Virus record (IMG/VR): IMGVR_UViG_3300031949_000008
Location: 46,228-110,227 of that record
From: a virus
Length of the DNA stretch: 64,000 nucleotides
Strand: one strand, 5' to 3'
Shown here: in pieces, positions 38,942 to 64,000 of the stretch
How the letters are laid out: the number at the start of each line of letters is the position of its first letter
How positions within the stretch are numbered: position 1 is the first letter of the stretch
The notes under the pieces: generated by a model
Databases searched by the model: none
What the model saw: only the letters and a program-made list of their open reading frames with translations
What the model was told of the DNA's origin: nothing
Position numbers and translations under genes: made by a program

Positions 38942-40299
38942 TAAAAATATCCAGTTACTTTATTTAATCTATCAGGAGTTTTTGGTAAAAATTTATATCC
39001 TGGATGACGGTAAATTATTGGAACCATACATATATATCTAAGACTATCAATTAAATGATCATCTCGCTTTAATACTCTCTCTTTAGGATCTTTTTGATTC
39101 TTATTTCTAGCCCAATCATCCCATAGATAATGACGTAATTCTCTTTTTAGATTTACACAATTTTTAGTAATAGATAACTTTGGCTTCTTATTCTCAGAAT
39201 CAAATAATGAGTTTAATGTTAAAATACCTGCTGGAACATCTTTATCTGCATCAGTAGTATAAATACCAGAAGACATTAATTGATCTTTAATACTTTTACC
39301 AGATGTTGCTTGTACAATTTTACCAGATGTATCCATCACACTAATCTGTGGTACTCGTCCATGTAATTTCTTCTTTATTTCAGGCACAAGTTCTGTAACT
39401 GTACCTGCTTGTAATATTTCATCATATACAATATATTCATTTTCTTTATTAAAGGCTACAAATAGAATACCCCAAGGATTTCGATCATGTGGATCTATTC
39501 CAATAAATATCATATGATCATCAGTTATCTTAATAGGATCTATCATATTTTTATCAGAAAATGATTTTAATACTAATCCACTTCTAGGAATAAATTCACC
39601 CATCAAAGCAGCTTCCAAGTTATCCTTCATTGCTGGATTGGCCCTCACTGAGTCAATTTCTTTCTTTGTCACATATGGATTTTCATCAGTCCGAACATGC
39701 CAATGTTCTACTGCTGGAGGAATAGCTTCAGGATTATCATATAATTGGTCATAGAGCCAGGTTAATCCGTGAAGAGGGGTACAGGTAATAATTAATTTTC
39801 CACCAACATCAATAGTTCGCATAAAATTACTTTGAAATACATCTAAAGGTGGTTCCTCATCCATAGATACTAAATTACGAGATACACCTTCAAAGGATTC
39901 CAAATCAGATTCATAACTTTTAAATTCTATTTCTGTACCATTCTTTAATATTAAAATAGGACGTTCTTTACTACAATGACCATCCCATGCGTCAGGATAT
40001 AAAAACTTTTTAAAATAAGGTAATGCAATTCTAAAAATACCATTAAAATCTACTGTACAATATCTAATCTGTAAAGGTGGTTCTGGATAATCTAAATATG
40101 GATGAATACCCAAAGCTGCCCAACAAACTTCTCCTATATTACTATAAGTTTTTGAACTTCGCTTTCCACCTAAAATAAGTCTAGTTTTAGCTGTACTTTT
40201 ATGAAACTCAGCAATTTTAGAATTTGCTGGTTTATATTTCAGCAATTCCATATTTGCTAACTTCATAGTAGTACCATCATCAAATTGAGAAAAATCCAT
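38941..40299 (-). CDS. terL: Terminase large subunit
   Basis: GGKRSSKT Walker A, VSMDEEPP Walker B, TCTPLHG, GIDPH nuclease motif, DDHLIDSLRY. Confidence 0.95.
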   Translation of the reverse strand: MDFSQFDDGTTMKLANMELLKYKPANSKIAEFHKSTAKTRLILGGKRSSKTYSNIGEVCWAALGIHPYLDYPEPPLQIRYCTVDFNGIFRIALPYFKKFLYPDAWDGHCSKERPILILKNGTEIEFKSYESDLESFEGVSRNLVSMDEEPPLDVFQSNFMRTIDVGGKLIITCTPLHGLTWLYDQLYDNPEAIPPAVEHWHVRTDENPYVTKKEIDSVRANPAMKDNLEAALMGEFIPRSGLVLKSFSDKNMIDPIKITDDHMIFIGIDPHDRNPWGILFVAFNKENEYIVYDEILQAGTVTELVPEIKKKLHGRVPQISVMDTSGKIVQATSGKSIKDQLMSSGIYTTDADKDVPAGILTLNSLFDSENKKPKLSITKNCVNLKRELRHYLWDDWARNKNQKDPKERVLKRDDHLIDSLRYICMVPIIYRHPGYKFLPKTPDRLNKVTGYF

Positions 40300-41678
40300 T
40301 ATACACCAAAAATATGTCTAGTTTTATCATAATATGATTTAATTTCATGTGCTGATAAAGCACGATTAAATATAAGGACTTCGCCAATTTCACCTATTAG
40401 ATACTGTCCAGCCTGTGACGCCCAACTCCCAATTTCAAGAGTGGCTGCATTGGTTAAATCAATATTTCCGGCTGCAGATGAACCATCTAGACTACCGTTA
40501 GTATATGCACTACACAGATTACCAGAATAATTTCTAGTAGCTCCCAATAAAGAAAACTTATTCATGGTAATAGGTGTATTATTTGTTACGCCAACTCCTG
40601 CGGCAATTTCAAGTTGAAAGTAGGCAAGGCTTGAAATTAAATATAAGCTATACCATGCTGCCCCATCACGTTTGGTCACTAATCTATGAAGAGTCGAAGG
40701 ATATCCAGATGGTCTTACCCAAACCAATATTGTTAAATCACTTATACCAATGGTAAGACTTGCATTAGCACCACAATTTACATAATCATCCACCCCATCA
40801 AAGTACCATCCTATTCCTACTTTTGGTCTAACTTTATCTATTCTCCAGCTTGTTATCGTATTTGGATTAAATCCACTCTCAACGCTTGCCCAATTTCTCG
40901 TTGTGCCATTTAAGGCACTGACGATATGGACGGCGGTTGCGGGAGGATCGGTGACACGCTTAAAGGAGACATCGTCAGCATCTAATGAAGCAATTGTTCC
41001 GGCAATGATGTAAAATCTTCCGTTTGAAGACCCAATAATATATCCTGTTTTTAAGCCATTCCCAGTTGATAAACTAACGCGAGTTAAACTCGAAATATCC
41101 AAATTGCCTGCAACGTGATTTGAAACCGTTAGTATTCCTTTGTAGAGAGCCAAATACGTTAACAGAGCTGCATTCTGATTTAATCCATAGTTTACAGCTA
41201 CGGCAACAAAATGAGCTACCCCGACAGCTATGGTACATCCAGCATCCTTAACCCAAAATCCCGTGTCTGAAGAAAATTCCCTGTCGGCAGCATTGGTTAT
41301 AATTTCACTCCCCAACGTCTCCCCTGCCCCGACTCCAGCAAGGTAGCCGGTGGCTTTCTTGCCTGCGGCGTCGAGGACTTCAATATAGTGAGGAGTATAA
41401 CCTAAATCTGTTCCAGCAAGAGCACTTAGGTCAAGAGATGACCAGAAGAAGGCATTACCAGAGGTGAAGTCACCATAGTTATAGGTTGAGCCGATACTAG
41501 TCATCTGAGGATTACCAGCATATGGTACTGCTCCATTAATAATACCATCATTATGATTATCTGATTGATCCCAAATTTTAGATGCTTCTTTACCATATTT
41601 ATAAAATGGTAACCAAAGGACACAGCCACCTAATGACATAGGATTCCATTCATGTTTACGAGTAGATCGTCTTCTCAT
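40299..41678 (-). CDS. LamG/concanavalin A-like domain virion protein
   Basis: WDQSDNHNDG ... FDGVDDYV ... GEIGEVLIFNRALSAHEI. Confidence 0.8.
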   Translation of the reverse strand: MRRRSTRKHEWNPMSLGGCVLWLPFYKYGKEASKIWDQSDNHNDGIINGAVPYAGNPQMTSIGSTYNYGDFTSGNAFFWSSLDLSALAGTDLGYTPHYIEVLDAAGKKATGYLAGVGAGETLGSEIITNAADREFSSDTGFWVKDAGCTIAVGVAHFVAVAVNYGLNQNAALLTYLALYKGILTVSNHVAGNLDISSLTRVSLSTGNGLKTGYIIGSSNGRFYIIAGTIASLDADDVSFKRVTDPPATAVHIVSALNGTTRNWASVESGFNPNTITSWRIDKVRPKVGIGWYFDGVDDYVNCGANASLTIGISDLTILVWVRPSGYPSTLHRLVTKRDGAAWYSLYLISSLAYFQLEIAAGVGVTNNTPITMNKFSLLGATRNYSGNLCSAYTNGSLDGSSAAGNIDLTNAATLEIGSWASQAGQYLIGEIGEVLIFNRALSAHEIKSYYDKTRHIFGV

Positions 41679-44019: not shown

Positions 44020-44781
44020 TTATTCTATATGATCAGCTAGACCAAATTCTATAACTTCTTTAGCATCTAACCATAGTTCTTTTTTATCAATACGTGATTG
44101 AAGATCTGTTAGTGAGAATTTACTATGTGCAGATATATATGCATTAATATTATTTTGAATCTTTCTTAATATTTTTGCTTCTTCTTCTTTAGATGTAGGT
44201 GTCTCTACTTTAAGAAATGTAAAACTCTGTAATTCATGAAACATTGCCATTGCATTTCTATCAATATACCTATATCCAGTACTTCCTGAAACAAGAATAA
44301 TGATTCCAGCAGAAGCTGCAAGACCTTTTGCTCTAACTTCTACAATAGTTCCATTACGCTTAACATCTTCAATTAAACCTGCCATAGCTAATGCATCAAA
44401 TACTGATCCACCAAAACTGAATAAATGTATTACAAGCTTTTTTGGAGATCTAATTTTAACATATTGTAAATTTTTCCATAATGAAGAGTAATCTATATAT
44501 TCAAGGTATAAATGAATAGAATCGCCTTCTGCTCTTATTCCCTTAGCTATACTTTCCTTAAGAGCCATATCATATGTAAGTTCATTTATTTTCTTATCTT
44601 GTTCTACTTTTTCTAGATCGGATTCTATTTTCTTGATTGTTAATTCCTTGATTTTTACATCAAGGTCTGAACATTTATTCGTTATATTATTATCCTGAGC
44701 AAATGCTACTGAAAAACATGACAGCATTCCGATAGTTAAAACTATCGCTATTGCTTTCTTGAGCCAAGATTTCACATTCAT
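44020..44781 (-). CDS. ClpP-like serine protease with N-terminal signal peptide
   Basis: SFGGSVFDALA, GLAASAG (catalytic Ser), MFHE, WLDAKEVIEFGLADHI; MNVKSWLKKAIAIVLTIGMLSCFSVAFA leader. Confidence 0.8.
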   Translation of the reverse strand: MNVKSWLKKAIAIVLTIGMLSCFSVAFAQDNNITNKCSDLDVKIKELTIKKIESDLEKVEQDKKINELTYDMALKESIAKGIRAEGDSIHLYLEYIDYSSLWKNLQYVKIRSPKKLVIHLFSFGGSVFDALAMAGLIEDVKRNGTIVEVRAKGLAASAGIIILVSGSTGYRYIDRNAMAMFHELQSFTFLKVETPTSKEEEAKILRKIQNNINAYISAHSKFSLTDLQSRIDKKELWLDAKEVIEFGLADHIE

Positions 44782-48506: not shown

Positions 48507-48535
48507 TTGACAAAAACATTGTTATTTTTTATAAT
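48507..48535 (+). promoter_or_regulatory. Consensus sigma70 early promoter
   Basis: TTGACA-17 nt-TATAAT, perfect consensus at the start of the plus-strand arm. Confidence 0.85.
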
Positions 48536-52084: not shown

Positions 52085-53575
52085 AGTATGCTGTTCTTGA
52101 TGGAGTTAAGCTTTCTATAAAGTGTAAAACTCACATCTCCTATGGATATTAATTAAACAAATCGTGAGTCGAATTTCTATCTTATATATGAAAGGACTCT
52201 ATGAGAAAAGCTAGAAGTAATGAACTGGGACGAGTATTAGAAAAAGGATATGATATTGATCAGACATTACTTAGCAAATGTGCATATTATCCACTATTTA
52301 GATATATTGATTTCTACGATCCAAAAACTGATGAACATGTTAAAGGTCAGCAATTAGTATGTGGTAAGTGTAGTAGTATTGAACCTAATCCTAAATGTAA
52401 ACACCACGTTAATTTACTTTGGTGAAACAAAGATATGAATAAATTTACAGAATTAACTAATAAACAAATTGAGGAAAATATATATATATGTCCATCATGT
52501 GGTAGAGTTGTACAAGTCCAAGATATTTCTAACCAATATGAAGATATTGATGAAAATCATGCAGAAGGATACTGTCCATTTTGTCATCGATTTTGCTGTT
52601 TTCTATGTGAATATGTCTATACATAAAAGGAGAAGTGAAATGAATCAACCAATCTATACTAAAATAGATAATGAGTTTAGAAGTTTTGTAGCAAATAATG
52701 AAAAAGTATTGAGAGAATTAGAAGCAGAATGTCCTTTAAGGGTAGATATACTACATGGAGTAAAAGGAGTATGTCGAAGTGATATGTTGGATGAACCATA
52801 TAATATCGCTTTCATTTATAAAATAGGTGGTGACGAAGGTTCAGCATACCATTTTTTAGATAAACATATGGATAAAATATATTCTTATTATGAGTATTTG
52901 TAGGATATCGATTACCAACACAACTATATACAAAGAATCAAATAGATATAATGTTTAATCAACCATAAGGAGCTAAGATGACAAAGAAACTTACAAAAAG
53001 AGAATTTACTATTAAACATAAAGCATATGAACAAGGTCTTATTGAAGGATGGCAACACGCAATTCTTTTACTAAGAGGATGTATTAAAGCACATAAAACT
53101 ATTCTTAAACAAAAAGAAATTGAAGCATATGTAGCACATAATAAAAATTATATGTGGAAGGAATGATATGACACTCAAAATATTACATAATAGTCGAAAG
53201 AAAGAAAAGACTGATCTTGTGCAATGTTCTTATATTGATCATTGTACAAGGTATCATTGTGCTTGTTATAAGGAACATCATCGTAGATGACAATGTCACC
53301 GAACACTAGTTGAGTGTTATTGGACAAAGAAAAAGGTTATATGTAAAACAATTATAAATTAAGGAGAGAATATGCAGCCACATTATAATTTAGGTATTCG
53401 TTTTCGTACTCATTTTCAGCCATTTGGTATTTCAAAAAAGAGAATATCTAATAAACTTCATGATGAATTACAAGGCCATATTAATGCTTTAAAAGAAGGT
53501 AGGATAACATGGGCAGATATTAAAGATACTGTTAAAGATTTATATAGTGTTATTAAAAGATTAGGTAAATAAATT

Positions 53576-53650
53576 GCCGCAGTAGCTCAAATAGTAGAGC
53601 CTTGTTTTGTAAACAAGAAGATAGGGGTTCAACTCCTCTCTGCGGCCCCA
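53576..53650 (+). tRNA. tRNA-Thr (TGT)
   Basis: GCCGCAG/CTGCGGC acceptor, CTTGT-TTTGTAA-ACAAG anticodon arm, GGTTCAACTCC T-arm, encoded CCA. Confidence 0.9.
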
Positions 53651-53655
53651 AATAT

Positions 53656-53726
53656 AGCCAGTTAACTCAATGTAGAGTAATCGCTTTATAAGCGATAAGT
53701 TACTGGTTCAAGTCCAGTACTGGCTA
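53656..53726 (+). tRNA. tRNA-Ile (TAT)
   Basis: AGCCAGT/ACTGGCT acceptor, ATCGC-TTTATAA-GCGAT anticodon arm, ACTGG-TTCAAGT-CCAGT T-arm; followed by CTA rather than CCA. Confidence 0.85.
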
Positions 53727-53732
53727 CTAATA

Positions 53733-53815
53733 TAGTTGGTAGTAACAGCCACGTTGAGTTAGCCGCAACACTAGGTGGATGGACTGTCGGCGACCTATCC
53801 AGTTATTATCAACTT
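53733..53815 (+). ncRNA. Structured RNA between tRNAs
   Basis: agttggtagtaac pairs with gttattatcaact, enclosing internal hairpins. Confidence 0.35.
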
Positions 53816-53821
53816 ATAAGT

Positions 53822-53896
53822 GTGGTCATAGTGTAAGTAGGTAGCACAAGAGGTTGAGGCTTCTAGGTTCGGAACACCTGCTCCGATGATCACCCC
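53822..53896 (+). tRNA. Degenerate tRNA-like element (His-like scaffold, aberrant anticodon and T loops)
   Basis: GTGGTCA/TGATCAC-C-CCA acceptor, D arm GTGT/GCAC, 6-nt anticodon loop TTGAGG, T loop lacks TTC. Confidence 0.5.
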
Positions 53897-54266
53897 ATTT
53901 TATAAAAGGAGACTATATGCTACTTGATATAATGGCATGTGGAGTCCATGTTGAAGAATGCATGAAAGAATGTTTTGGTTGTGGATATAAAATGTATTGG
54001 TATATTGAAGAACTTAATGAATGGAAACATGTATATCTAATACCAGTAGGAAACATGTCATGAGTGAATGAAATAACAGTGATAATAAAGTAAAAGTTAA
54101 ACTAAAGGAGATCCTATGACAAGAGCACAAACTACATTATTAATAGCAATGGCTAAGGGAATAACATATCTTTTACGTGAAGATAATTATCGTGATCAAT
54201 CTGCATTTGGATTTATTAAGTCTATTGAAGAAAATATTGAAGAGGTAGGGAGGAGGACACGGATAT

Positions 54267-54599
54267 ATGAAAAAGAAACATGTTAAACAAAGTATCGAAG
54301 AATTGGCTAAAGGATTGCAAGCAATCTATAGAGTAAAGCCTAACTTATCTGACATAACTTTAAATATTATGTATAGTGGTGAAGCCTTTACTCTTGCAGT
54401 TGCAACAATTACAATACCAAATAGTAGTGGTAATAAGTCAAAGGTTATTATTGGTGAAGGAATCTGTAAAAGAGGGTTTGAAGATGACAAATCTGATGAA
54501 ATTAGAAGTTATAATATTGCTGGCTCAAGAGCATTAGAAGCTATAGATAAAAAACTCAGACGAGCTAATAAATATATTGGCCATAAATATGAAGGTTAG
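54267..54599 (+). CDS. Hypothetical early protein
   Basis: GGAGG RBS, 110 aa. Confidence 0.55.
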   Translation: MKKKHVKQSIEELAKGLQAIYRVKPNLSDITLNIMYSGEAFTLAVATITIPNSSGNKSKVIIGEGICKRGFEDDKSDEIRSYNIAGSRALEAIDKKLRRANKYIGHKYEG

Positions 54600-55313
54600 A
54601 GACAGCATACAACATCAAATTTTAAATAAGTTATTGATATTACAATGGAAATTACGTCCAATTATAGGTAAGAAGTGGGCAAGACGTATATCTATATATA
54701 TTGAACATCTATTATTACATTAGGAGAAGAAAATGATCATAAGATTATATATTGCCTTTGAATTACTTCTTATTATATACCTGTTAACAAAGATATTGGT
54801 GGCTTTAGGTGGAACAACAAATCCATTTCCTGTGTAAGTAACTATTACAGGAAAAGAAGTTACTTATAGTTTTATTGAAGCAATTAAATTACAAGTAGAA
54901 TAAATAAATTGTAAAATAAAGGAGGAATAATATGCATCTATTTCATAAATGGAAAACTATATCTAAACGGAAGACAACCATAACAGAAACTATATTAGGT
55001 CGATATGTTGCAAAAGGTATTCCAGCGATTGTTGAACTTCAGAAATGTAAGGAGTGTTCTAAAGAACGTGCATTTGTCATTAAAGGTAATAATTTACGTA
55101 CAGAAGTAAATCCTGACCTTTGGTTTACAAATAAAGATAGAGAGATATATAAATTATGAGATCATATAACAAATAGATCATTACAAGCATGGCTAAAACA
55201 ATTTCCTGACGGATCTTCGATATCTATTCATAATAATAAACTTATTCTTCATAGTTTAAACGGTCAGGATTGGATCTGTATTGATACTCTTATGTAATAA
55301 AGAGGAAATAATT

Positions 55314-56192
55314 ATGGGATATATGCATATTGAAAATCTTTATAAGAATCAGGATATCTTCATGTTCAAAAGATGTTATGCAATGGAGAAGATTCATGGC
55401 ACTTCTGCACATATCTCTTATAAGGATGGTAATATCAATTTCTTTGCAGGTGGCTCAAAGCATGAAACTTTTGTAAAGCTATTTGATGTAGAAATGCTAC
55501 TAATGGCTCTAAAAGAAACAACTTCTGATGAGCGTTCCATACATATCTATGGTGAAGCATATGGTGGAAGTATTCAAAGAGGATGGACGACTGAATCTTA
55601 TGGAAACCAGATATGCTTTGTTGCTTTTGAAGTTAAAATAGGGGATACTTGGCTCTCTGTTCCTAAAGCAGAACATTTCTGTAAGAGATTAGGATTAGAT
55701 TTTGTACATTACTTAGAGATTCCTACTATGTTAGAATATATTGATGCTGAACGGGATGCTGATTCTATACAAGCTATTAAGAACGGAATGGGAGAAGGGC
55801 ACAAGCGAGAAGGAATTGTGCTACGTCCATTAGAAGAAGTTATAAAGAATAATGGTGAACGAGTTATAGCCAAACATAAACGAGCTGATTGTAGCGAAAC
55901 AACAACACCACGCAATATTACAGACAAATTAATAAGGCAGACTGATATAAAAAAGATTGTGGATGAATGGGTAACAGAAGAACGATTGAACCATATTGTC
56001 ACTTCTGGTGAAGTGGAATTAAAATTAGAAAATATAGGTAAAATGATGCATATAATGATTTCAGACATTTATAGAGAAGGCAAAGATGAGATTGAAGAAT
56101 CAAAAGATTTAGAAAGAGCAATAGGCAGAGAAACAGCTTTATTAGTTAAACGTCAGATTAAAAATGAATTTTATATTTCTCAAGAAAGATAA
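55314..56192 (+). CDS. RNA ligase (Rnl2-like nucleotidyltransferase)
   Basis: EKIHGTS (motif I), YGEAYGGSIQ, FEV, REGIVLRP, IAKHK; likely start MGYMH at 55314. Confidence 0.85.
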   Translation: MGYMHIENLYKNQDIFMFKRCYAMEKIHGTSAHISYKDGNINFFAGGSKHETFVKLFDVEMLLMALKETTSDERSIHIYGEAYGGSIQRGWTTESYGNQICFVAFEVKIGDTWLSVPKAEHFCKRLGLDFVHYLEIPTMLEYIDAERDADSIQAIKNGMGEGHKREGIVLRPLEEVIKNNGERVIAKHKRADCSETTTPRNITDKLIRQTDIKKIVDEWVTEERLNHIVTSGEVELKLENIGKMMHIMISDIYREGKDEIEESKDLERAIGRETALLVKRQIKNEFYISQER

Positions 56193-56336
56193 TTTATATG
56201 GAGGTAATATGTGTCTACATTTTAGTTATGAGAAAAAGATTAAAGTTATCGGATATTTACATATCTGTGAGTTGATTTGTAACAAATGTCATAAGATTAT
56301 CAGTTCATATGTATACCAGCCACGATGGAGATAATG

Positions 56337-56531
56337 ATGCCATTAGAAATATTAACAAATAAAGAATTAGAAGGAATTAAAGTTGGCGATTGGGTTACAC
56401 GACCAGGATGGGAGTTATTTTATGAAGTAACTAAAGTAGATAGATGGACAGATTCCCTTTGGTTATTTGCAAAATCCACTGGCCGAGCTTATGCATATAA
56501 ATTAACTGATCCAATATGGAAAATTAAGTGA
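56337..56531 (+). CDS. Small MPLEIL-tagged protein (paralog A)
   Basis: MPLEILTNKE...IKVGDWVTRPGW. Confidence 0.6.
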   Translation: MPLEILTNKELEGIKVGDWVTRPGWELFYEVTKVDRWTDSLWLFAKSTGRAYAYKLTDPIWKIK

Positions 56532-56537
56532 AAGAAT

Positions 56538-56726
56538 ATGCCATTAGAAATTCTAACAAATAAAGAGCCAGAGTCTACTATTAAAGTTGGAGATCAGATA
56601 ACTAGAAAAGGATGGAATAACGAGCGGTATGATGTAATTTATATTGATTGGGACAGTAATCTTTTTACCATAAGAAATAAACAAGGTTATAAGTATATTT
56701 ATAGTATGTGTCTTAGGGATGGCTAA
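56538..56726 (+). CDS. Small MPLEIL-tagged protein (paralog B)
   Basis: MPLEILTNKE...IKVGDQITRKGW. Confidence 0.6.
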   Translation: MPLEILTNKEPESTIKVGDQITRKGWNNERYDVIYIDWDSNLFTIRNKQGYKYIYSMCLRDG

Positions 56727-56903
56727 TAAACAGAAATGGTAAGATTATTGTTTTATGAGGTAATTAATGAAATGTCCAGATTGTTCTACAGAATTAATTA
56801 CTACAAAGAAATTTGGGCAAGGTGTATGGTTTTGTACGTTATGTAAATTTGCATGGTTTATACTAAAAATTAGACGAAAAGTATAGAGGAGGTATGCTCT
56901 ATT

Positions 56904-58124
56904 ATGCGAAAGATACATTTTAAGAATGCAGAAGGAAAAGTTGTCAAATGGAAAGATAAGATCGGCATTGTTAGAGATATTCAAATCGTAAATAGAAATG
57001 TAACAGGCCGTTTAATAGAAATACCTTCTAATCAATGTATTTGGATTAAGATTAGACCAGAGGATGATAATATGGTGACATTATTATCTAAGATAGATAC
57101 ATTAAAGTTACATAAGAATATTGATTATCAGAGTATGTTAAATAGTATATATTTAACAGGAGGTTTCTTAATGGGTGCTGATCCAGAAGTATTTGTAGTT
57201 AATAAACAAGGTATAATTATTCCAGCATTTACATTTCTTCCACATAAAAAAGCTGGAAATCCATTTTGGGATGGATTTCAAGCCGAATTTACTACTAGAG
57301 CATACAATTGTCTTGCTTTTCTTGTAGATGAAGTACAAAGCAAATTAAAGACTATCTTAAATGAAGCAAAAAAGATAGATGAAACAGCAAGCCTTACATA
57401 TAAAAGTGTAGTAGAAATACCAATCTCAATAATGAACAAAGCAGATAAAGAACATGTTATGCTTGGTTGTGCTCCTAGTAAAAATATATACAATATACCA
57501 TCAATTAAAATAGACGATCCTTATACTTTACCTATAAGATTTGCTGGTTGTCATTTTCATCTTGGAGGTGATAGATTTACAAATATCGATCAAACCGTGG
57601 GAGGCATAGATGCTATTCTTGGTGTTATATCGGTTTCTCTATTTCAAGGAATGGAAGATGAAAGGCGTAGACGATACTATGGACGAGCAGGAGAATTCAG
57701 AACACCAACACATGGTCTTGAATATCGTACATTAAGTTCTGCAGTACTATCTCATCCTGTCTTATTTCATCTTTGTTATGACTTGGCACGTGCATCTGCA
57801 CATATAGCACAAGCACAGTTATTTGATTTTTGGAATACAAAAGATTTTTCTATACCAGATATTATTAATGATTATGATATTATAGCTGCTAAAAAATTAT
57901 TAATACAGAACAAGGCTGCATTGATGGCTATTCTAGAAAAATTATATAGATTAAAATCTCCCATAACTACAAAATTATATAATTTAATTATAGAAGGTGC
58001 AATAAATATGCTTCCAGTGAATGATATGGCAGATAATTGGCATATAAAGAGAAATCAAATATGGAAGAGCCACTCTGAAGGAAATAATTGTTGCGTTTAT
58101 AAATTAAATATTGAGGAGGTTTAA
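56904..58124 (+). CDS. phiEco32-like COOH-NH2 ligase (type 2)
   Basis: MGADPEVFV, DGFQAEF, LGCAPSKNIY, RFAGCHFHLG, RRRYYGRAGEFR...GLEYRTLS. Confidence 0.85.
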   Translation: MRKIHFKNAEGKVVKWKDKIGIVRDIQIVNRNVTGRLIEIPSNQCIWIKIRPEDDNMVTLLSKIDTLKLHKNIDYQSMLNSIYLTGGFLMGADPEVFVVNKQGIIIPAFTFLPHKKAGNPFWDGFQAEFTTRAYNCLAFLVDEVQSKLKTILNEAKKIDETASLTYKSVVEIPISIMNKADKEHVMLGCAPSKNIYNIPSIKIDDPYTLPIRFAGCHFHLGGDRFTNIDQTVGGIDAILGVISVSLFQGMEDERRRRYYGRAGEFRTPTHGLEYRTLSSAVLSHPVLFHLCYDLARASAHIAQAQLFDFWNTKDFSIPDIINDYDIIAAKKLLIQNKAALMAILEKLYRLKSPITTKLYNLIIEGAINMLPVNDMADNWHIKRNQIWKSHSEGNNCCVYKLNIEEV

Positions 58125-58130
58125 TATAAA

Positions 58131-58451
58131 ATGTCCTTAGATTTTATAAAAAATAAGGAACCTAAAATAATCATAGCGTATGATCCAGAACAATTACCAG
58201 TAGAAACAAGAAATTATGAATATAGGTGTAAATTTTGTGGGGCTTTTAATTCTGGTATGGCAAATTTTCATGAAGAGGTACATAGTACTGCTGATATAGT
58301 AGAGTTAGGTCAAGATGAACCAGAATTAGAAAACTTCAATGATTATGAACCAGAAAATTTTATAATAGATTCTTTTAGATGTACAGAATGTGGGGAAGAG
58401 CGAGATAATATACAAGATATTTTTGAAGATTTTATAGCAGAGGCAAGATGA
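58131..58451 (+). CDS. Acidic Zn-ribbon protein
   Basis: CKFCG...CTECG; N-terminus MSLDFIKNKE. Confidence 0.55.
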   Translation: MSLDFIKNKEPKIIIAYDPEQLPVETRNYEYRCKFCGAFNSGMANFHEEVHSTADIVELGQDEPELENFNDYEPENFIIDSFRCTECGEERDNIQDIFEDFIAEAR

Positions 58452-58889
58452 GAGAAGAATCTGAAACAGTTTGTAAACTCGAAGAATGTATCAAGGAGTT
58501 GAAGAAAGAGAATGATATATAAATTTTTATGTTCTCATTGTCATGTAATATTTGAAGATGAATATATTAATGGGCAGATATTATTTAATTATACGATAGA
58601 TATCTCATGTCCTCTTTGTGGACATCATTGGAAGATAAACAAATCGTAGAATAAAGGAAGATATATGCAAGGAATAATTCGCTTACCTACTGATTTGAAT
58701 CAACGTGAACGATATAGATATAAAAAAGCTGTAGATATCTGGGCTAGTGCAGAATGGGTAGATGCAATAAAGATATGCTGTAATGATAAAGATATGGATT
58801 CATTATGTCAATTTCCATATATTCAAGTGTTAGCTGATATTTTCTTTAGAAAAGATATTCCTATATTTAAAATGGAAAAGGAGTAAGTA

Positions 58890-59132
58890 ATGAGTCTGGA
58901 AATATTAGAGAATATAATACCTCCAACAAAATTTAGAATACAAGATATGATAAGGGGGATAAGTTATGAATTTACTATTGGTGATATTGTAGAATGTAAG
59001 AATTATCCATATATACGTTGTAAATTACGTACTCATCCCTGTAATAAATGTACAATATCACTTTCATATCTCTCAAAAGAATCAGGAGTAGCATATTGTT
59101 CAAATTATCCTTTCGTAAAATCTAGTAGATAA
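58890..59132 (+). CDS. Small Cys-containing protein with MSLEILEN N-terminus
   Basis: AAGGAG RBS; shared N-terminal tag. Confidence 0.55.
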   Translation: MSLEILENIIPPTKFRIQDMIRGISYEFTIGDIVECKNYPYIRCKLRTHPCNKCTISLSYLSKESGVAYCSNYPFVKSSR

Positions 59133-59143
59133 AAAGGAATAAC

Positions 59144-59404
59144 ATGTCAACAGTTTATGTTTATAAGACCAAGAAAAAACAGATACTTGCAGTGCTAATA
59201 GGTACACCAGATGGAGAAGGTACTTCAAAAATTACAGTGCTAGATAGTAATATACCTCCTTCGAAAGCAGAATTAATTGATACATTTGAAGCTAATACTC
59301 AATGTGATTATATATCTGCTATGGTTCCTATCTTGCTTAAATATCTATCAGAAGATAAACGATTAATGAAGATAGTAAAGAGAATAGAGAAGGAGGGATT
59401 ATGA
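59144..59404 (+). CDS. Hypothetical protein
   Basis: ORF with RBS. Confidence 0.5.
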   Translation: MSTVYVYKTKKKQILAVLIGTPDGEGTSKITVLDSNIPPSKAELIDTFEANTQCDYISAMVPILLKYLSEDKRLMKIVKRIEKEGL

Positions 59405-59742
59405 ACGAATGTACTATGATTCATGTAAAATTTCCTGACTGTTTAGATTTGCTAAAATATTTATATCAACAAACATTATTGGACTGTTTTTATGTTAAAA
59501 TTCGCCCTCCATTTACCTCTTGTGATTCAGAAGATAATGGTGTTCGCAAGACATCAGATGGTCATACACTCTGTATAGAATTTGCATTTGCAAGTGATAT
59601 TGAAAAAGATCGTCTAAAATTATGGAAAACTTTAAATGATTATGGTATAAGAATAGTATGGAAAAAACTTGATAAAGGATATGAAATTGATGGTACTGGA
59701 AAGATACTTAAATCATGGGATTTAGATGATGGAATGTGTTAA
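59401..59742 (+). CDS. Hypothetical protein
   Basis: ORF with RBS. Confidence 0.5.
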   Translation: MNECTMIHVKFPDCLDLLKYLYQQTLLDCFYVKIRPPFTSCDSEDNGVRKTSDGHTLCIEFAFASDIEKDRLKLWKTLNDYGIRIVWKKLDKGYEIDGTGKILKSWDLDDGMC

Positions 59743-59937
59743 GGAGATAATATGACTGTTTATGAAATTTGGTATGAAACTAATGTTGGTCCTATTTTAT
59801 CTACTTATGAAAAAGCAATAGCATATTTAGAGCAAGATGGAGAGAAGTATGATCCATATCCATCTTCTGGTTATCCTTGTATTAAACATATTATAGTAGA
59901 TGATGAAGAAGTCTTTAGAGATAGATAGTGAGGGAAT

Positions 59938-60888
59938 ATGATCAAATTAGATTCACATTTAGATACCTTATATAAACTATATAAAGATTCCTCTCAACGA
60001 TATGATTTAACAAATAGGAAGAACCTAGATATAGATATTGAGAGATTAAAACAAGGAGACATTAATGTCTGTTTCTTTGCTCTTTGGCAGCCTCAATTAA
60101 TAGAAGACTCGCAAGAAGCTTTGATGAAAGTTGTTAAGAAATATGAATTTTTTCAGCAAGTGATCTTAGAAAATCCTGCTTTGGTCTTCTCAACCTCGCC
60201 CAAAGATATTAAAATAAATATGAATAACGATAAAATATCGGCATTTTTAGGATTAGAGAATGGGATTTCTATTGGAAAATCTTTAAATATTTTAAGATAT
60301 TATAATATATTGGGAATAAGTTACATGACATTATGTCACAATTATAATAATCAATTGTGTAGCTCGTCTACTGACAGCCCGTATCACAATGGATTAAGTA
60401 ACTTAGGAAAACAGACTATAAAAGAAATGAATAAGATAGGAATGATAATAGATATCTCTCATCTATCCGACAAATCAGTAGAAGATGTATTAGATATTTC
60501 TCAACTACCTGTCATTGCATCTCATTCTGGCTGCTATACAGTATATCCTAATTCACGGAACCTTAATGATAGATTGCTGGAAAAGATAGCACATAATGAG
60601 GGAGTTGTACAGGTTACATTATTGCCGAAGTGCGTTGGACAGAGAAATGATATCTCTAGCTTTGTCAATCATATAGATCATCTTCGTAGACTTATTGGCA
60701 TTGATTATATTGGAATTGGATCTGACTTTGATGGTGGGGGTGGGATAGTTGGATGTAGAGACATTAGTCAAGTAGATAATATCACTAAAGAATTACAGAG
60801 ACGTAAGTATAAAGAAGATGAGATAGAAAAGATATGGGGTTTAAACTTTTTAAGAGTTTATAGTCAAAACTACAAGAAAGGAGAATAA
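59938..60888 (+). CDS. Membrane/renal dipeptidase family (M19) amidohydrolase
   Basis: DSHLD, LGLENG, TLCHN, IDISH, ASHS, RNLND, IGSDFDG, IWGLNFLRV. Confidence 0.9.
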   Translation: MIKLDSHLDTLYKLYKDSSQRYDLTNRKNLDIDIERLKQGDINVCFFALWQPQLIEDSQEALMKVVKKYEFFQQVILENPALVFSTSPKDIKINMNNDKISAFLGLENGISIGKSLNILRYYNILGISYMTLCHNYNNQLCSSSTDSPYHNGLSNLGKQTIKEMNKIGMIIDISHLSDKSVEDVLDISQLPVIASHSGCYTVYPNSRNLNDRLLEKIAHNEGVVQVTLLPKCVGQRNDISSFVNHIDHLRRLIGIDYIGIGSDFDGGGGIVGCRDISQVDNITKELQRRKYKEDEIEKIWGLNFLRVYSQNYKKGE

Positions 60889-60890
60889 TT

Positions 60891-61673
60891 ATGAATATTC
60901 TTTTAAGAAACATTCCAGCAGGAGAACCATCAGCAACACGTCTCTTTAAGAGGATGCGAGAATTAGATGTAGATATACAAATTGTAGAGGACTATGAAGA
61001 ACTTATGCAACCAGCTGATTTTCTTATTCGTTGGGGATCGACAAAGAAATTCCCTATGAACCGTGGAGGAGTAGTAATTAATACAGCAGAGTCTATCAGG
61101 AATGGAGATGTAGATAAGGTAATAGGGCGCGAGATATTACAACAAGCAGGTGTTTCTGTACCACGGACATTCTTTTCAAAAGAAGATATATTAGAAGCTA
61201 ATAATGTACATTATCCATTAATTGGTAGGCAAAGACATCACGGTCAAGGAACTAACATAGAAGTAATTAAAGACAGAGCCGGTGTTAATAGGTCTATATC
61301 AGTATATTGGTCAGAATTTATCCCAAAAGATAGAGAATTTAGAACATATGTCTTTGGGAATAAAGTAATTGGTGTAGCTGAAAAGATTCCAAAAGATAAA
61401 AAAGATGTCGGGTGGAATAGTCATCTAGGAGCAACATTTATTGATGTGACTGAACCCTGGGATATTAATATGATAAACACAGGTCTAGCAGCCGCCAAGG
61501 AGATTGGTCATCATTTCTCTGGCGTAGATATTATGAAACTTAATGGTAAATATTACGTATTAGAAGTTAATACTGCTGTTGCTTTGTCTAATCCGCATAG
61601 AGTCGATATATTTGCAAGAGCATTTAAAGATGCAATTTATAATTTTGGGAGGTATGGAAAATTATGCAGATAA
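60891..61673 (+). CDS. ATP-grasp ligase (RimK/phiEco32-like) 1
   Basis: IRWG, DK...R..LQ..GVSVP, YPLIGR...HGQG, EFR.YV, GVDI...YYVLEVNTA. Confidence 0.85.
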   Translation: MNILLRNIPAGEPSATRLFKRMRELDVDIQIVEDYEELMQPADFLIRWGSTKKFPMNRGGVVINTAESIRNGDVDKVIGREILQQAGVSVPRTFFSKEDILEANNVHYPLIGRQRHHGQGTNIEVIKDRAGVNRSISVYWSEFIPKDREFRTYVFGNKVIGVAEKIPKDKKDVGWNSHLGATFIDVTEPWDINMINTGLAAAKEIGHHFSGVDIMKLNGKYYVLEVNTAVALSNPHRVDIFARAFKDAIYNFGRYGKLCR

Positions 61674-62494
61674 GTATTTCTAGAAGTGCAGGATCTAGCA
61701 TGACAACTATTGAAAGAATACTAGATCATTTAGATGATGCTAAACTGATTCAGCAAGAAGATATGGATAGAGCAAAGGTAGATATTTTATTTAGATTTGG
61801 GGGGGTTCGTACACAAAGGAGTTCTTTTGAAATAAATACCCCAACAATGATTAAAGCTATAAATAATAAACCATTTACACGAAGATTGCTATATGAAGGC
61901 CTTATATCTATTCCAGTAACATACTTCAGTAAAGCAGAAATAGAACAAGCTGATCATATACATTTTCCTCTTATAGGAAGAGCCAAATATCATTTACAAG
62001 GAAAAGGAGTTATAATTAGTAACAATATAAGAGATATAAAACTAGATACAAAGTCAAGATATTGGTCAGAAATAATTGATAAGGATAGAGAATATCGAGT
62101 TTATGTATTCTTTGGAAAAGTTATCGGGATGGAGGAAAAAATACCTAAAGATAGAAATAATATCGTATGGAATTTCCATGCTGGAAATTCTGTATTTAAA
62201 TCCATTAAATATATTAACTATCCTATTGATGTATGTGTATTAGCAATACAAGCAGCCAAATGTATAAATATAGATTTTTCTGCTGTTGATATTATTTCCA
62301 AGAAGAATAAGCATTATATTTTAGAATTGAATGCTTCTCCAAGTTGTAGTGCAAATAGATGTCATCGTATCGCACAAGTTCTAAATTGGGCAAAAGAGGA
62401 AATAGAAAGAGATGGTAGGAAGCCACAGCACTTTGTATTACCTAATATAATCAGAAGTTACAAGGAATTAATACATCCATGTCTGTATAAGTAG
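61664..62494 (+). CDS. ATP-grasp ligase (RimK/phiEco32-like) 2
   Basis: FRFG, FPLIGR...HLQGKG, EYRVYV, AVDI...YILELNASP. Confidence 0.85.
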   Translation: MQISISRSAGSSMTTIERILDHLDDAKLIQQEDMDRAKVDILFRFGGVRTQRSSFEINTPTMIKAINNKPFTRRLLYEGLISIPVTYFSKAEIEQADHIHFPLIGRAKYHLQGKGVIISNNIRDIKLDTKSRYWSEIIDKDREYRVYVFFGKVIGMEEKIPKDRNNIVWNFHAGNSVFKSIKYINYPIDVCVLAIQAAKCINIDFSAVDIISKKNKHYILELNASPSCSANRCHRIAQVLNWAKEEIERDGRKPQHFVLPNIIRSYKELIHPCLYK

Positions 62495-62528
62495 AGTCTA
62501 GTGAAAGAAGGACTATTGAGGATTGTAT

Positions 62529-62792
62529 ATGCCATTAGAAATATTAAATAACCCAGTTGCAGATAATTATCTAAAACCAGGATGGTATAAAGTCAATCAT
62601 AAGGATTATGGATATATAAAAAGTGGTAGTATAGTACATATAATAGATACTGTAGAGTGTGATAATATGAACGATATCCATTGTCAAGGATGTAAAGGTC
62701 TTCTAAAAATAGAACATGATAATATAATTGAGGCACACTGTTTCAGTTGGAATGGTGGCAAAGATAGACATAATATTTTTAAACCTATATAA
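62529..62792 (+). CDS. Small protein with MPLEILNN N-terminus
   Basis: GAGG RBS, ATG at 62529; C..C cluster. Confidence 0.55.
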   Translation: MPLEILNNPVADNYLKPGWYKVNHKDYGYIKSGSIVHIIDTVECDNMNDIHCQGCKGLLKIEHDNIIEAHCFSWNGGKDRHNIFKPI

Positions 62793-62806
62793 AGGAGGAT
62801 AAAGAA

Positions 62807-63088
62807 ATGGAGACAAATGTAAATAACGTTTTCTTCCATGAAAATATCACGAAAGAATCTATCAAAGATATGACAAGAAAAAATGTTGATATTATTCCTG
62901 CAATAAAAGAATTGATAGGACCTAATCCTATACCTGGTTTAGCGATTGTATCTATAGATGATGATGAAATTGTAGAAATTATTAATCATATTAACCAATC
63001 GCTAGAATATTATATTGCAGGAGAAGACGATATTAGACTTGGGAATACTACAATAACTATTTCAGCATTAATCGTAGATAAGATTTAA
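62807..63088 (+). CDS. Hypothetical protein
   Basis: AAGGAGG RBS. Confidence 0.55.
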   Translation: METNVNNVFFHENITKESIKDMTRKNVDIIPAIKELIGPNPIPGLAIVSIDDDEIVEIINHINQSLEYYIAGEDDIRLGNTTITISALIVDKI

Positions 63089-63123
63089 GTATTCATATAC
63101 TTTAGGTAAAAGGATAAAATATA

Positions 63124-63333
63124 ATGGTATTAGAAATATTAACAAATAATATGACAATAAAAAGAAATATTGTCGTAAATGGTATATTAGTATATTGTAT
63201 GTCTTGTGAACAACCAATGGATAGAAGTGGTTGGAGACATTTATGTCTGAAATGTGCTACTGATAAAACTATTGATAGTATGCATATGTGGCATAAAGCA
63301 GTTGAAATATTTCCTGAATTAAAATACACATAG
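63124..63333 (+). CDS. Small Zn-finger protein with MVLEILTN N-terminus
   Basis: CMSC...CLKC. Confidence 0.55.
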   Translation: MVLEILTNNMTIKRNIVVNGILVYCMSCEQPMDRSGWRHLCLKCATDKTIDSMHMWHKAVEIFPELKYT

Positions 63334-63342
63334 GAGATAGAT

Positions 63343-64000
63343 ATGGAGTTATTACTAGAATTTAAAAATTGTAATAGTTGTAAACTACCTACCATACATG
63401 AGACAGGATATCAACATACTATCATTAAACTACCAGGACTTCCGGCTTTATTTAAAAAGAATAAGCTTACTATGTTTGTTGCACGTTTAGGCATAGAAGC
63501 AATAACAGATACAAAACTAAATGTAGCAGATATTTTATATGCAGTAGAAAATAATAAGCTAGATGACCCGCCTTTACAATCTGATACAATTTATTGTTAT
63601 TGCAAATTAAAAAAGAGTAAAGCAGATTTAGATATATTAACTAAGTTAAATAGTGCTACTGCAAATAGAAAATCTATAACTGTTCTTATAGATAATATGA
63701 CGGGTTTTGAAGTAGATTATATTCCATTAGATATTCCAGTATATAAAGATATTATATTTAATTATATGGATAAAGAAATTGGCTTTTATAATATGAAAGC
63801 CAATATTTTATGGTTATGTGATATTGGTCATTATAAAGATAAATTTAAAGATAAATTATATAGTATTTTAACAACTATTTCTTATTATAAATTACGTGGA
63901 GAAATTCCAATATTACCTAATCTAACAATAGGGATAGATCCTGAATTCGAAATATTTGATGGAAAGACATTTATTCGTGCTGTTACTGTTATACAAGACG
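63343..64000 (+). CDS. Second COOH-NH2 ligase-like protein, truncated by the window edge
   Basis: Open frame from ATG 63343 to the window end, reaching LTIGIDPEFEIFDG, the G.DPE motif; not in the ORF track. Confidence 0.65.
   Translation, partial: MELLLEFKNCNSCKLPTIHETGYQHTIIKLPGLPALFKKNKLTMFVARLGIEAITDTKLNVADILYAVENNKLDDPPLQSDTIYCYCKLKKSKADLDILTKLNSATANRKSITVLIDNMTGFEVDYIPLDIPVYKDIIFNYMDKEIGFYNMKANILWLCDIGHYKDKFKDKLYSILTTISYYKLRGEIPILPNLTIGIDPEFEIFDGKTFIRAVTVIQD

Follow-up and report, generated by a model that had tools for sequence, protein, structure and literature searches.

Introduction

N-terminal signals by which proteases recognize phage proteins are well established, for example in the case of the lambda O protein and ClpX, and short motifs binding to a common hub include the clamp motif QL[SD]LF of bacteria and, in T4, the gp45-binding tails of gp43, gp33, and gp55. 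Among the ribosomally synthesized and post-translationally modified peptides (RiPPs), families exist in which one leader is combined with many cores, e.g., the prochlorosins or SCIFF/ranthipeptides. T-even phages possess a highly diverse set of internal proteins, of which only the N-terminal capsid targeting sequence (CTS) is conserved (PMC3012670), and the promoter early stem-loop elements (PeSLs) are non-coding DNA consisting of a promoter and a stem-loop (PMC2839356). Here we analyze a 64,000-nucleotide stretch of viral DNA, the window, in which a short N-terminal peptide of the form M-x-L-E-I-L-x-N, in the following called the tag, opens a series of small open reading frames (ORFs). The window corresponds to bases 46228-110227 of one virus contig of 110,227 bp (IMGVR_UViG_3300031949_000008), here called G000; coordinates preceded by "window" are positions in the 64,000-nucleotide stretch, whereas those preceded by "genome" refer to the full G000 contig, unless another genome is named.

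Results

A Common N-Terminal Tag on Small Open Reading Frames of G000

Seven tag sites had been noted in the window by the first-pass annotation, and at each of them an open frame on the + strand begins with ATG. Together with the tagged ORFs situated beyond the window they are as follows (Phi, hydrophobic residue; aa, amino acids):

Window 53168..53290, + strand: loose tag MTLKILHN, 40 aa, 4 Cys; fits the core Phi-K-Phi-Phi-x-N of the related genomes G002 and G004 (see below)
Window 56337..56531, + strand: tag MPLEILTNK, 64 aa, no Cys; paralogue of 56538
Window 56538..56726, + strand: tag MPLEILTNK, 62 aa; paralogue of 56337
Window 58131..58451, + strand: tag MSLDFIKNK, 106 aa, double CxxC zinc ribbon; orthologues in G003, G004, and contig P0147
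Window 58890..59132, + strand: tag MSLEILEN, 80 aa, 5 Cys
Window 62529..62792, + strand: tag MPLEILNN, 87 aa, 4 Cys; GAGGA is found ahead of this ATG and not ahead of the TTG at 62523
Window 63124..63333, + strand: tag MVLEILTN, 69 aa, CxxC...CxxC; paralogue of genome 4576 and orthologue of G001 11875
Genome 2589, 4576, 6974, 9763, 13784, 13983, and 31744: seven further tagged ORFs beyond the window
Genome 5235 (L001:5235-5327), + strand: decayed 15th copy ISLEILENK with ATA in place of ATG, 31-codon frame, good GGGAGG site ahead

In the whole contig, 14 ATG-started ORFs of 40-110 aa thus carry M-x-L-E-I-L-x-N, mostly followed by K, 11 of them in a strict and three in a loose form. To judge from its sequence, the copy at genome 5235 is either a dying tagged gene or one in which a rare start codon is in use. 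The bodies behind the tag had been described as unrelated except for the pair 56337/56538, which are 39% identical (E 1e-7) once the tag is removed; this is borne out within the window, and the whole contig adds a second pair, i.e., 63124 and genome 4576 (MSLEMLENK). No solid Pfam or PHROG family was found for the tagged proteins, the best matches being Zn_ribbon_8 at 4.5e-5 and SH3_3 at 0.017. All tags of G000 are situated on the early/replication strand and none in the - strand block with portal, terminase, and capsid genes. Position 2 of the G000 tag is always occupied by P, S, G, T, or V; a connection with Met excision was considered and dropped, as relatives carry L, K, E, or Q at position 2.

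The strict pattern M.LEIL.N occurs 11 times in the six-frame translation of G000, each time at the start of an ORF, compared with about 0.0005 occurrences expected from the amino acid composition for 212 N-termini. Similarly, 31 strict tags are encountered in G003 vs 0.012 expected and 8 in G004 vs 0.007 expected, again all at ORF starts. When the motifs were sought genome-wide and in the relatives by de novo clustering of nine-residue N-termini, taken from every ATG start with a Shine-Dalgarno site ahead of it, a procedure in which the known motif was not used, the G000 set as first recognized was recovered, and the relatives proved to have shared starts of their own. The same clustering in 155 unrelated phage loci (2.18 Mb) and in two 98-kb genomes of a sister clade gave no cluster larger than three, and because the controls never exceed this size, the tag phenomenon is real and confined to the clade. 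A scan of IMG/VR with the DNA pattern of the tag, ATGCCNTTAGAAATHTTRNNNAAY, returned six matches, all of them due to chance (frames of 6-38 codons on unrelated contigs), and a text search of the literature for tag strings returned nothing relevant.

Related Genomes Carry Their Own Versions of the Tag

A profile search of 5.8 billion proteins identified one outside orthologue of a tagged ORF, P0007, which starts with MTLEILTN and is 66% identical to the ORF at genome 13784 (62 aa); a metagenome scan with the alignment of these two gave no match. Close relatives were not found among GenBank phages, neither by megablast of the region nor by tblastn with the polymerase and the SNF2 helicase (best 26-30% identity). 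With the SNF2 helicase, however, four relatives were identified in IMG/VR, the sequences of which were taken as 20-kb stretches, and a metagenome scan with the SNF2 alignment yielded a single further contig, in essence a duplicate of G004. The SNF2 identities of the four relatives to G000 and their tag versions are:

G001: 106 kb with terminal repeats, SNF2 identity 59%; tag MLIE[LF]IxNK on two ORFs
G002: 32-kb fragment, SNF2 identity 56%; tag MKL[EK]FLxN on two ORFs
G003: 103 kb, SNF2 identity 46%; tag M[EQD][IL]SxN[RK] on 43 ORFs, three membrane proteins and the DNA polymerase among them
G004: 113 kb with terminal repeats, SNF2 identity 44%; tag MKILxxK on about 12 ORFs

CheckV rates G003 as 50% complete, yet its core replication and virion genes are present. 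A single core, Phi-[E/K]-Phi-[Phi/S]-x-[N/Q]-[K/R], covers all versions; it begins with the third residue of the protein in G000-G002 and with the first in G003 and G004. As in G000, the tags of G003 and G004 cluster in early/replication-type blocks; G003 has arrays of tagged ORFs, three of its tagged ORFs have clear predicted transmembrane segments, and some tagged proteins of G003 and G004 end in basic C-terminal tails. The ORF directly following the SNF2 gene is tagged in G000, G001, G003, and G004, and BLAST finds no similarity among the bodies of these four proteins.

The Tag Is Added in Front of Orthologous Domains

Members of three orthologous families bear the tag version of the genome in which each of them sits:

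6-Cys/2-His family: G000 MPLEILINQ-SKLYQC; P0007 MTLEILTNS-KKLYQC; nine G003 paralogues M[EQD][IL]SxN[RKQ]-(L)Y(I)C; G002 MKLKFLPN
Double zinc-ribbon family (window 58131): G000 MSLDFIKNK; G003 METSKNK; G004 MKIILNK; contig P0147 MDKSRNE
Window-63124 family: G000 MVLEILTNN and MSLEMLENK; G001 11875 MLIELIKNK

Distant homologues of the 6-Cys/2-His family, found in a library of 1.84 billion representatives, start straight at the (L)Y(I)C strand with its first Cys, and compared with them the members from the clade have 7-11 extra residues at the N-terminus. Two of the distant homologues have tag-like starts (MDIYNNK and MNIDMIESNKK). The DNA polymerase of G003 (810 aa, UDG-like domain and PolA; L102, genome 93612-96041 of G003, - strand) opens with the tag MDISQNV, located about seven residues ahead of the N-terminus common to the polymerases of G003 and G000 (MTECQDC in G000). 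Because the distant 6-Cys homologues are devoid of a tag and the tag of the G003 polymerase precedes the shared N-terminus, sequence comparison indicates that the tag is an add-on and not part of the domains behind it. In a separate observation, 16 stretches of P0128, a library protein of 884 aa, match the 6-Cys/2-His domain, which suggests that P0128 is a tandem-repeat form of a domain otherwise free-standing as a 60-aa phage protein.

In AlphaFold2 models, tag residues 1-9 of one tagged family have predicted local distance difference test (pLDDT) values below 50, and in the double zinc-ribbon family (58131) residues 1-28 have a pLDDT of about 32 as compared to about 74 for the zinc-ribbon core. 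The models are of low confidence overall (pLDDT 55 and 51), are built on shallow alignments, and show only that the N-terminus is not confidently structured. As modeled, the tag sits on a low-confidence, probably flexible N-terminal arm.

Selection Acts on the Peptide

The invariant Ser4 of the G003 tag is encoded by 23 AGY and 20 TCN codons, the near-invariant Asn6 uses AAT and AAC at 30:12, close to genome usage, and for Leu five different codons are used. Variable tag positions differ by whole codons. Upstream of the tag ATG only a GGAG-type Shine-Dalgarno site is common, and conservation begins at the ATG. In G000, codons for Ile5, Leu6, and Asn8 match genome usage, and those for Pro2 (CCA 7/8) and Leu3 (TTA 12/14) are somewhat more uniform. 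Because Ser is split between AGY and TCN, variation proceeds by whole codons, and the upstream DNA is not conserved, selection acts on the tag peptide and not on the DNA. The conservation at the peptide level at which the first-pass annotation had hinted on account of codon variation is correct. Descent by copying or a preference at the 5'-end also plays a part in codon uniformity.

Genomic Setting of the Tagged ORFs

G000 has a GC content of 28-37%. Its early/replication strand block extends from about window 48,500, across the contig end, to about genome 34,000, and terminase, portal, capsid, and tail genes are encoded on the opposite (-) strand. The early block encodes an SNF2 helicase, a primase-helicase with an intein, PolA fused to a uracil-DNA glycosylase (UDG)-like domain, SbcCD, RecA, and a gp32-like single-stranded DNA-binding protein, and in addition three COOH-NH2 ligases, a glutamine amidotransferase (GATase), two ATP-grasp enzymes, and an M19 dipeptidase. 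The COOH-NH2 ligase, the dipeptidase, and the two RimK-type ATP-grasp enzymes that had been named as neighbors of the tagged ORFs are all present:

Window 48507-48535, + strand: sigma-70 consensus promoter, perfect TTGACA-17-TATAAT, heading the early block
Window 56904..58124, + strand: COOH-NH2 ligase (PF14395), tag neighbor
Window 59938..60888, + strand: M19 dipeptidase (PF01244, E 1e-96), tag neighbor
Window 60891-61673, + strand: first RimK-type ATP-grasp gene, tag neighbor
Window 61664-62494, + strand: second RimK-type ATP-grasp gene, tag neighbor
Window 63343..63999, + strand: 5' part of a second COOH-NH2 ligase, running past the 3' end of the contig

The second ATP-grasp gene (start at window 61664-61690, + strand) opens with MQISISRS, which resembles MQISKNR of the G003 type and may be due to chance. 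At the 5' end of the contig, a COOH-NH2 ligase frame is likewise open (genome ~1-1181, L001); both contig-end frames are probably one split gene, in which case the contig would be circularly permuted or have overlapping ends.

The primase-helicase (Toprim and DnaB_C; L001:11049-13772, + strand) carries an intein with Hint and LAGLIDADG homing-endonuclease domains. A gene for a MazZ-like dATP/dGTP diphosphohydrolase N-terminal domain (PF18909, E 3e-32; L002:1880-2473, + strand) is adjoined by a nucleoside 2-deoxyribosyltransferase-like gene (L002:1247-1678, + strand), and these two genes together with the UDG-PolA fusion hint, by their predicted functions, that the phage DNA contains a non-canonical base. 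Only G000 encodes a ClpP-family protease (PF00574, E 3e-19; window 44020-44778, - strand), which has an N-terminal extension of about 100 residues; G001-G004 lack it. Radical S-adenosylmethionine (SAM) genes number seven in G003, three each in G000 and G001, and one in G004. The seven of G003 (37.7-43.2 kb and 75.7-78.1 kb of its genome; L103, L104, L105) include four that are clustered in the virion block.

Discussion

A Docking Motif as the Tentatively Favored Reading

Among the options raised by the first-pass annotation, that of a docking or targeting motif fits best with the selection at the peptide level, with the uniformity of the tag within each genome across orthologues, and with the probably flexible N-terminal arm. 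Because of the peptide selection, the genome-wise uniformity of orthologues, and the probably flexible N-terminal position, we tentatively favor the view of the tag as a short linear motif, N-terminal and portable, that docks to a putative common partner in the cytoplasm. The tag would sit at the tip of a flexible arm and be captured there by one common reader, probably encoded by the phage, for which a large and rapidly turning-over set of accessory proteins, none of them late, would form a single class. Clients would mostly be small, Cys-rich, and zinc-ribbon-like, and in G003 they would also include membrane proteins and the DNA polymerase. Tags and a trans-acting reader might evolve together, to which gene conversion or the copying of 5'-ends into new ORFs may contribute, and the outcome would be a class-wide control via docking, loading, stability, or activation.

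Several points weigh against this reading. A reader of the tag was not found. The nearest complete relative, G001, has two tags only, so that a dedicated reader would have few clients there, and the G004 version is devoid of the Asn that is invariant elsewhere. Confidence in the structure models is low. Furthermore, the tags are rich in A, the RNA at their starts is slightly less folded, and the distance of tagged ORFs from the upstream stop is shorter; in G003, usage of the tag codons GAA (20/23), ATA (17/19), and AAG (19/21) is more uniform than in the genome as a whole. Descent by copying and a role at the level of translation contribute or could even suffice.

It is possible, although we regard it as doubtful, that this small clade of phages of 100-113 kb runs its own proteome address system, in which a 7-residue N-terminal code, specific for each genome, is read by a putative cytoplasmic reader, tags and reader co-evolve, and the shared fate of the clients is neither capsid loading nor RiPP maturation, but for instance timed activation or removal, or recruitment to one complex. 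Such an address code may mark up to about one fifth of the genes, including those for small zinc-binding proteins, membrane proteins, and the DNA polymerase.

Rejected candidates include the ClpP-like protease as common reader, owing to its absence from G001-G004, and readings of the tag as an N-glycosylation sequon or a Lys-Asn isopeptide tag, which are ruled out by G004 lacking the Asn and by N-x-S/T not being present.

Alternative Explanations

An unlikely alternative, but one with some real chance, is that the tag is an expression cassette in which an A-rich, unstructured start and its nascent peptide aid initiation, reinitiation, or early elongation of packed, often newborn ORFs, and that it spreads by copying of 5'-ends and needs no reader. 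Codons 2-9 contain 47-55% A in tagged ORFs vs 37-40% in untagged small ORFs, the minimum free energy of folding of the start region is weaker in tagged ORFs of all three genomes (p = 0.08, 0.24, 0.20), the median gap to the upstream gene amounts to 4.5, -1, and -4 nucleotides for tagged ORFs vs 14, 13, and 8.5 nucleotides (p = 0.12, 0.07, 0.02), and codon choice within tags is more uniform than genome usage. A-richness, weak folding, and short gaps may explain part of this codon uniformity. Such a cassette, however, requires neither that Ser be split between AGY and TCN nor that Asn be kept instead of any other A-rich codon; the Shine-Dalgarno sites of tagged ORFs are strong and of the ordinary kind, no tag is present on the late genes with the highest expression, and the untagged neighbors demonstrate that many other starts work. 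The translation-start cassette of the first-pass annotation is compatible with A-richness, weaker folding, and the close upstream stop, whereas the Ser codon split, the invariant Asn, and the tag-free late genes are left unexplained by it.

We attribute only a small chance to the tag being an N-terminal degron or stability cap that sets the lifetime of non-late proteins via a protease or adaptor of host or phage (ClpXP, FtsH, Lon). Mixed soluble, membrane, and polymerase clients and the restriction to non-late genes would fit this function, but the only phage protease found, the ClpP-like one, is absent from the relatives, and it would be odd to mark a replicative polymerase for destruction.

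A signal of the CTS type, by which the tag would load small proteins into the prohead for injection with the DNA and would perhaps be cleaved off by a head protease, seems improbable as well. The analogy is formally close, as a short N-terminal peptide is common to otherwise unrelated small proteins, and the basic tails on some tagged proteins of G003 and G004 fit such loading. Yet in G003 the DNA polymerase and three membrane proteins count among the clients, all tagged genes are located in the early/replication block, and the end of the tag has no Phi-x-E cleavage motif. As to the protease, no match to the S77 prohead protease (T4 gp21-type, PF03420) was found in G000, which is a weak negative since the model matched no control genome either, an S78 prohead protease was not detected, and there is no recognizable head protease common to the clade, the only ClpP-like protease gene being confined to G000.

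Quite improbable, too, is that the tag is a relic of common descent without a function of its own, left by one ancestral small gene or by first codons that were kept after frameshifts or replacements. Some tagged ORFs are indeed true paralogues, G003 has arrays of them, and the codons of the tags are partly uniform. But the tag is the sole conserved part across proteins that have no detectable similarity and differ in their Cys patterns, predicted membrane segments, and domains, it persists across genomes with SNF2 helicases that are 44-59% identical, and its amino acyl residues are kept through codon switches that lead over non-synonymous paths.

Least probable, and to our mind very much so, is that the tag is a leader or handle for a modification enzyme of the phage, be it the ligase/ATP-grasp/GATase module or RiPP-like radical SAM/SPASM enzymes with the Cys-rich bodies as substrates. 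Of the 14 tags in G000, nine are interspersed among the genes of the ligase module, and the first-pass annotation had suggested that the tag could be a leader or recognition peptide for the ligases. This suggestion is not supported, since G003 has the most tags (43) and yet no PF14395 ligase, no PF08443 ATP-grasp enzyme, and no GATase homologue in a genome rated 50% complete, and G001 presents the reverse situation, with three ligases, an ATP-grasp enzyme, and both SPASM enzymes, but only two tags. The interleaving with ligases therefore marks where accessory ORFs accumulate, not a functional link. Regarding the radical SAM enzymes, about two thirds of the tagged proteins have at least four Cys (in G003, 28/42 tagged vs 12/59, p = 4e-6; the enrichment is not significant in G000 or G004), and G003, the richest in tags, is also the richest in radical SAM genes. 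G004, on the other hand, combines about 12 tags with its single radical SAM gene, an orthologue of G000 39410-40786, and has no SPASM-type radical SAM enzyme; the two radical SAM/SPASM genes of G000 are in the virion block on the other strand, not adjacent to tagged ORFs, and in both enzymes the radical SAM core starts at about residue 10, which leaves no room for a RiPP recognition element (RRE). A sequence search for PqqD/RRE (PF05402) found none in the five genomes at E <= 1. Moreover, the tag has only 7-9 residues, several clients have 0-1 Cys, and one client is a polymerase.

A sliding-clamp binding motif was considered and rejected, as the forms of G000, G001, and G002 fit it loosely and G003 has an invariant Ser at hydrophobic position 5 of the aligned core.

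Significance and Comparison With Known Systems

If the tag were a true address label, a class of phage accessory proteins would be defined by a simple sequence rule, and a direct experimental handle on the reader and its pathway would be at hand. Genome-specific versions of one core on orthologues would then be a natural example of concerted evolution of motif and reader, and would show how phages give newly acquired or newborn ORFs immediate entry to an existing pathway. The more modest readings, expression cassette or degron, would also explain how dozens of ORFan genes stay working in these phages.

Like the CTS of the T4 internal proteins IPI-III and of Alt (PMC3012670), the tag is a short N-terminal peptide constituting the sole conserved part of fast-evolving small proteins. 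Unlike the CTS, it has 7-9 residues, no Phi-x-E site, genes in the early block, and membrane and polymerase clients. With the PeSLs, mobile regulatory cassettes of T4-type phages (PMC2839356), the tag shares that a short element is repeated at the 5' boundary of variable ORFs in plastic regions, where it may aid shuffling; in contrast to PeSLs, the element is translated in the present case and selected as a peptide, and the upstream DNA has a generic Shine-Dalgarno site only, with no conserved promoter or stem-loop. The resemblance to RiPP precursor families lies in the many copies per genome, in which a conserved N-terminus precedes a hypervariable and frequently Cys-rich part. However, the tag is far shorter than typical leaders, the bodies are domains of 40-180 aa and include an 810-aa enzyme, there is neither an adjacent maturase nor an RRE, and tag number does not track the ligases or the radical SAM/SPASM enzymes. 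As in clamp and other hub-binding motifs, 5-7 terminal residues are found on a DNA polymerase and on unrelated small proteins, and xLEIL and SLDFI of G000 resemble QLDLF, but dozens of clients per genome far exceed those of known hubs, and no phage clamp was identified. What is distinctive in the present clade is the combination of a very short tag, one core with genome-specific versions on orthologues, a restriction to non-late genes, and a mixed set of clients.

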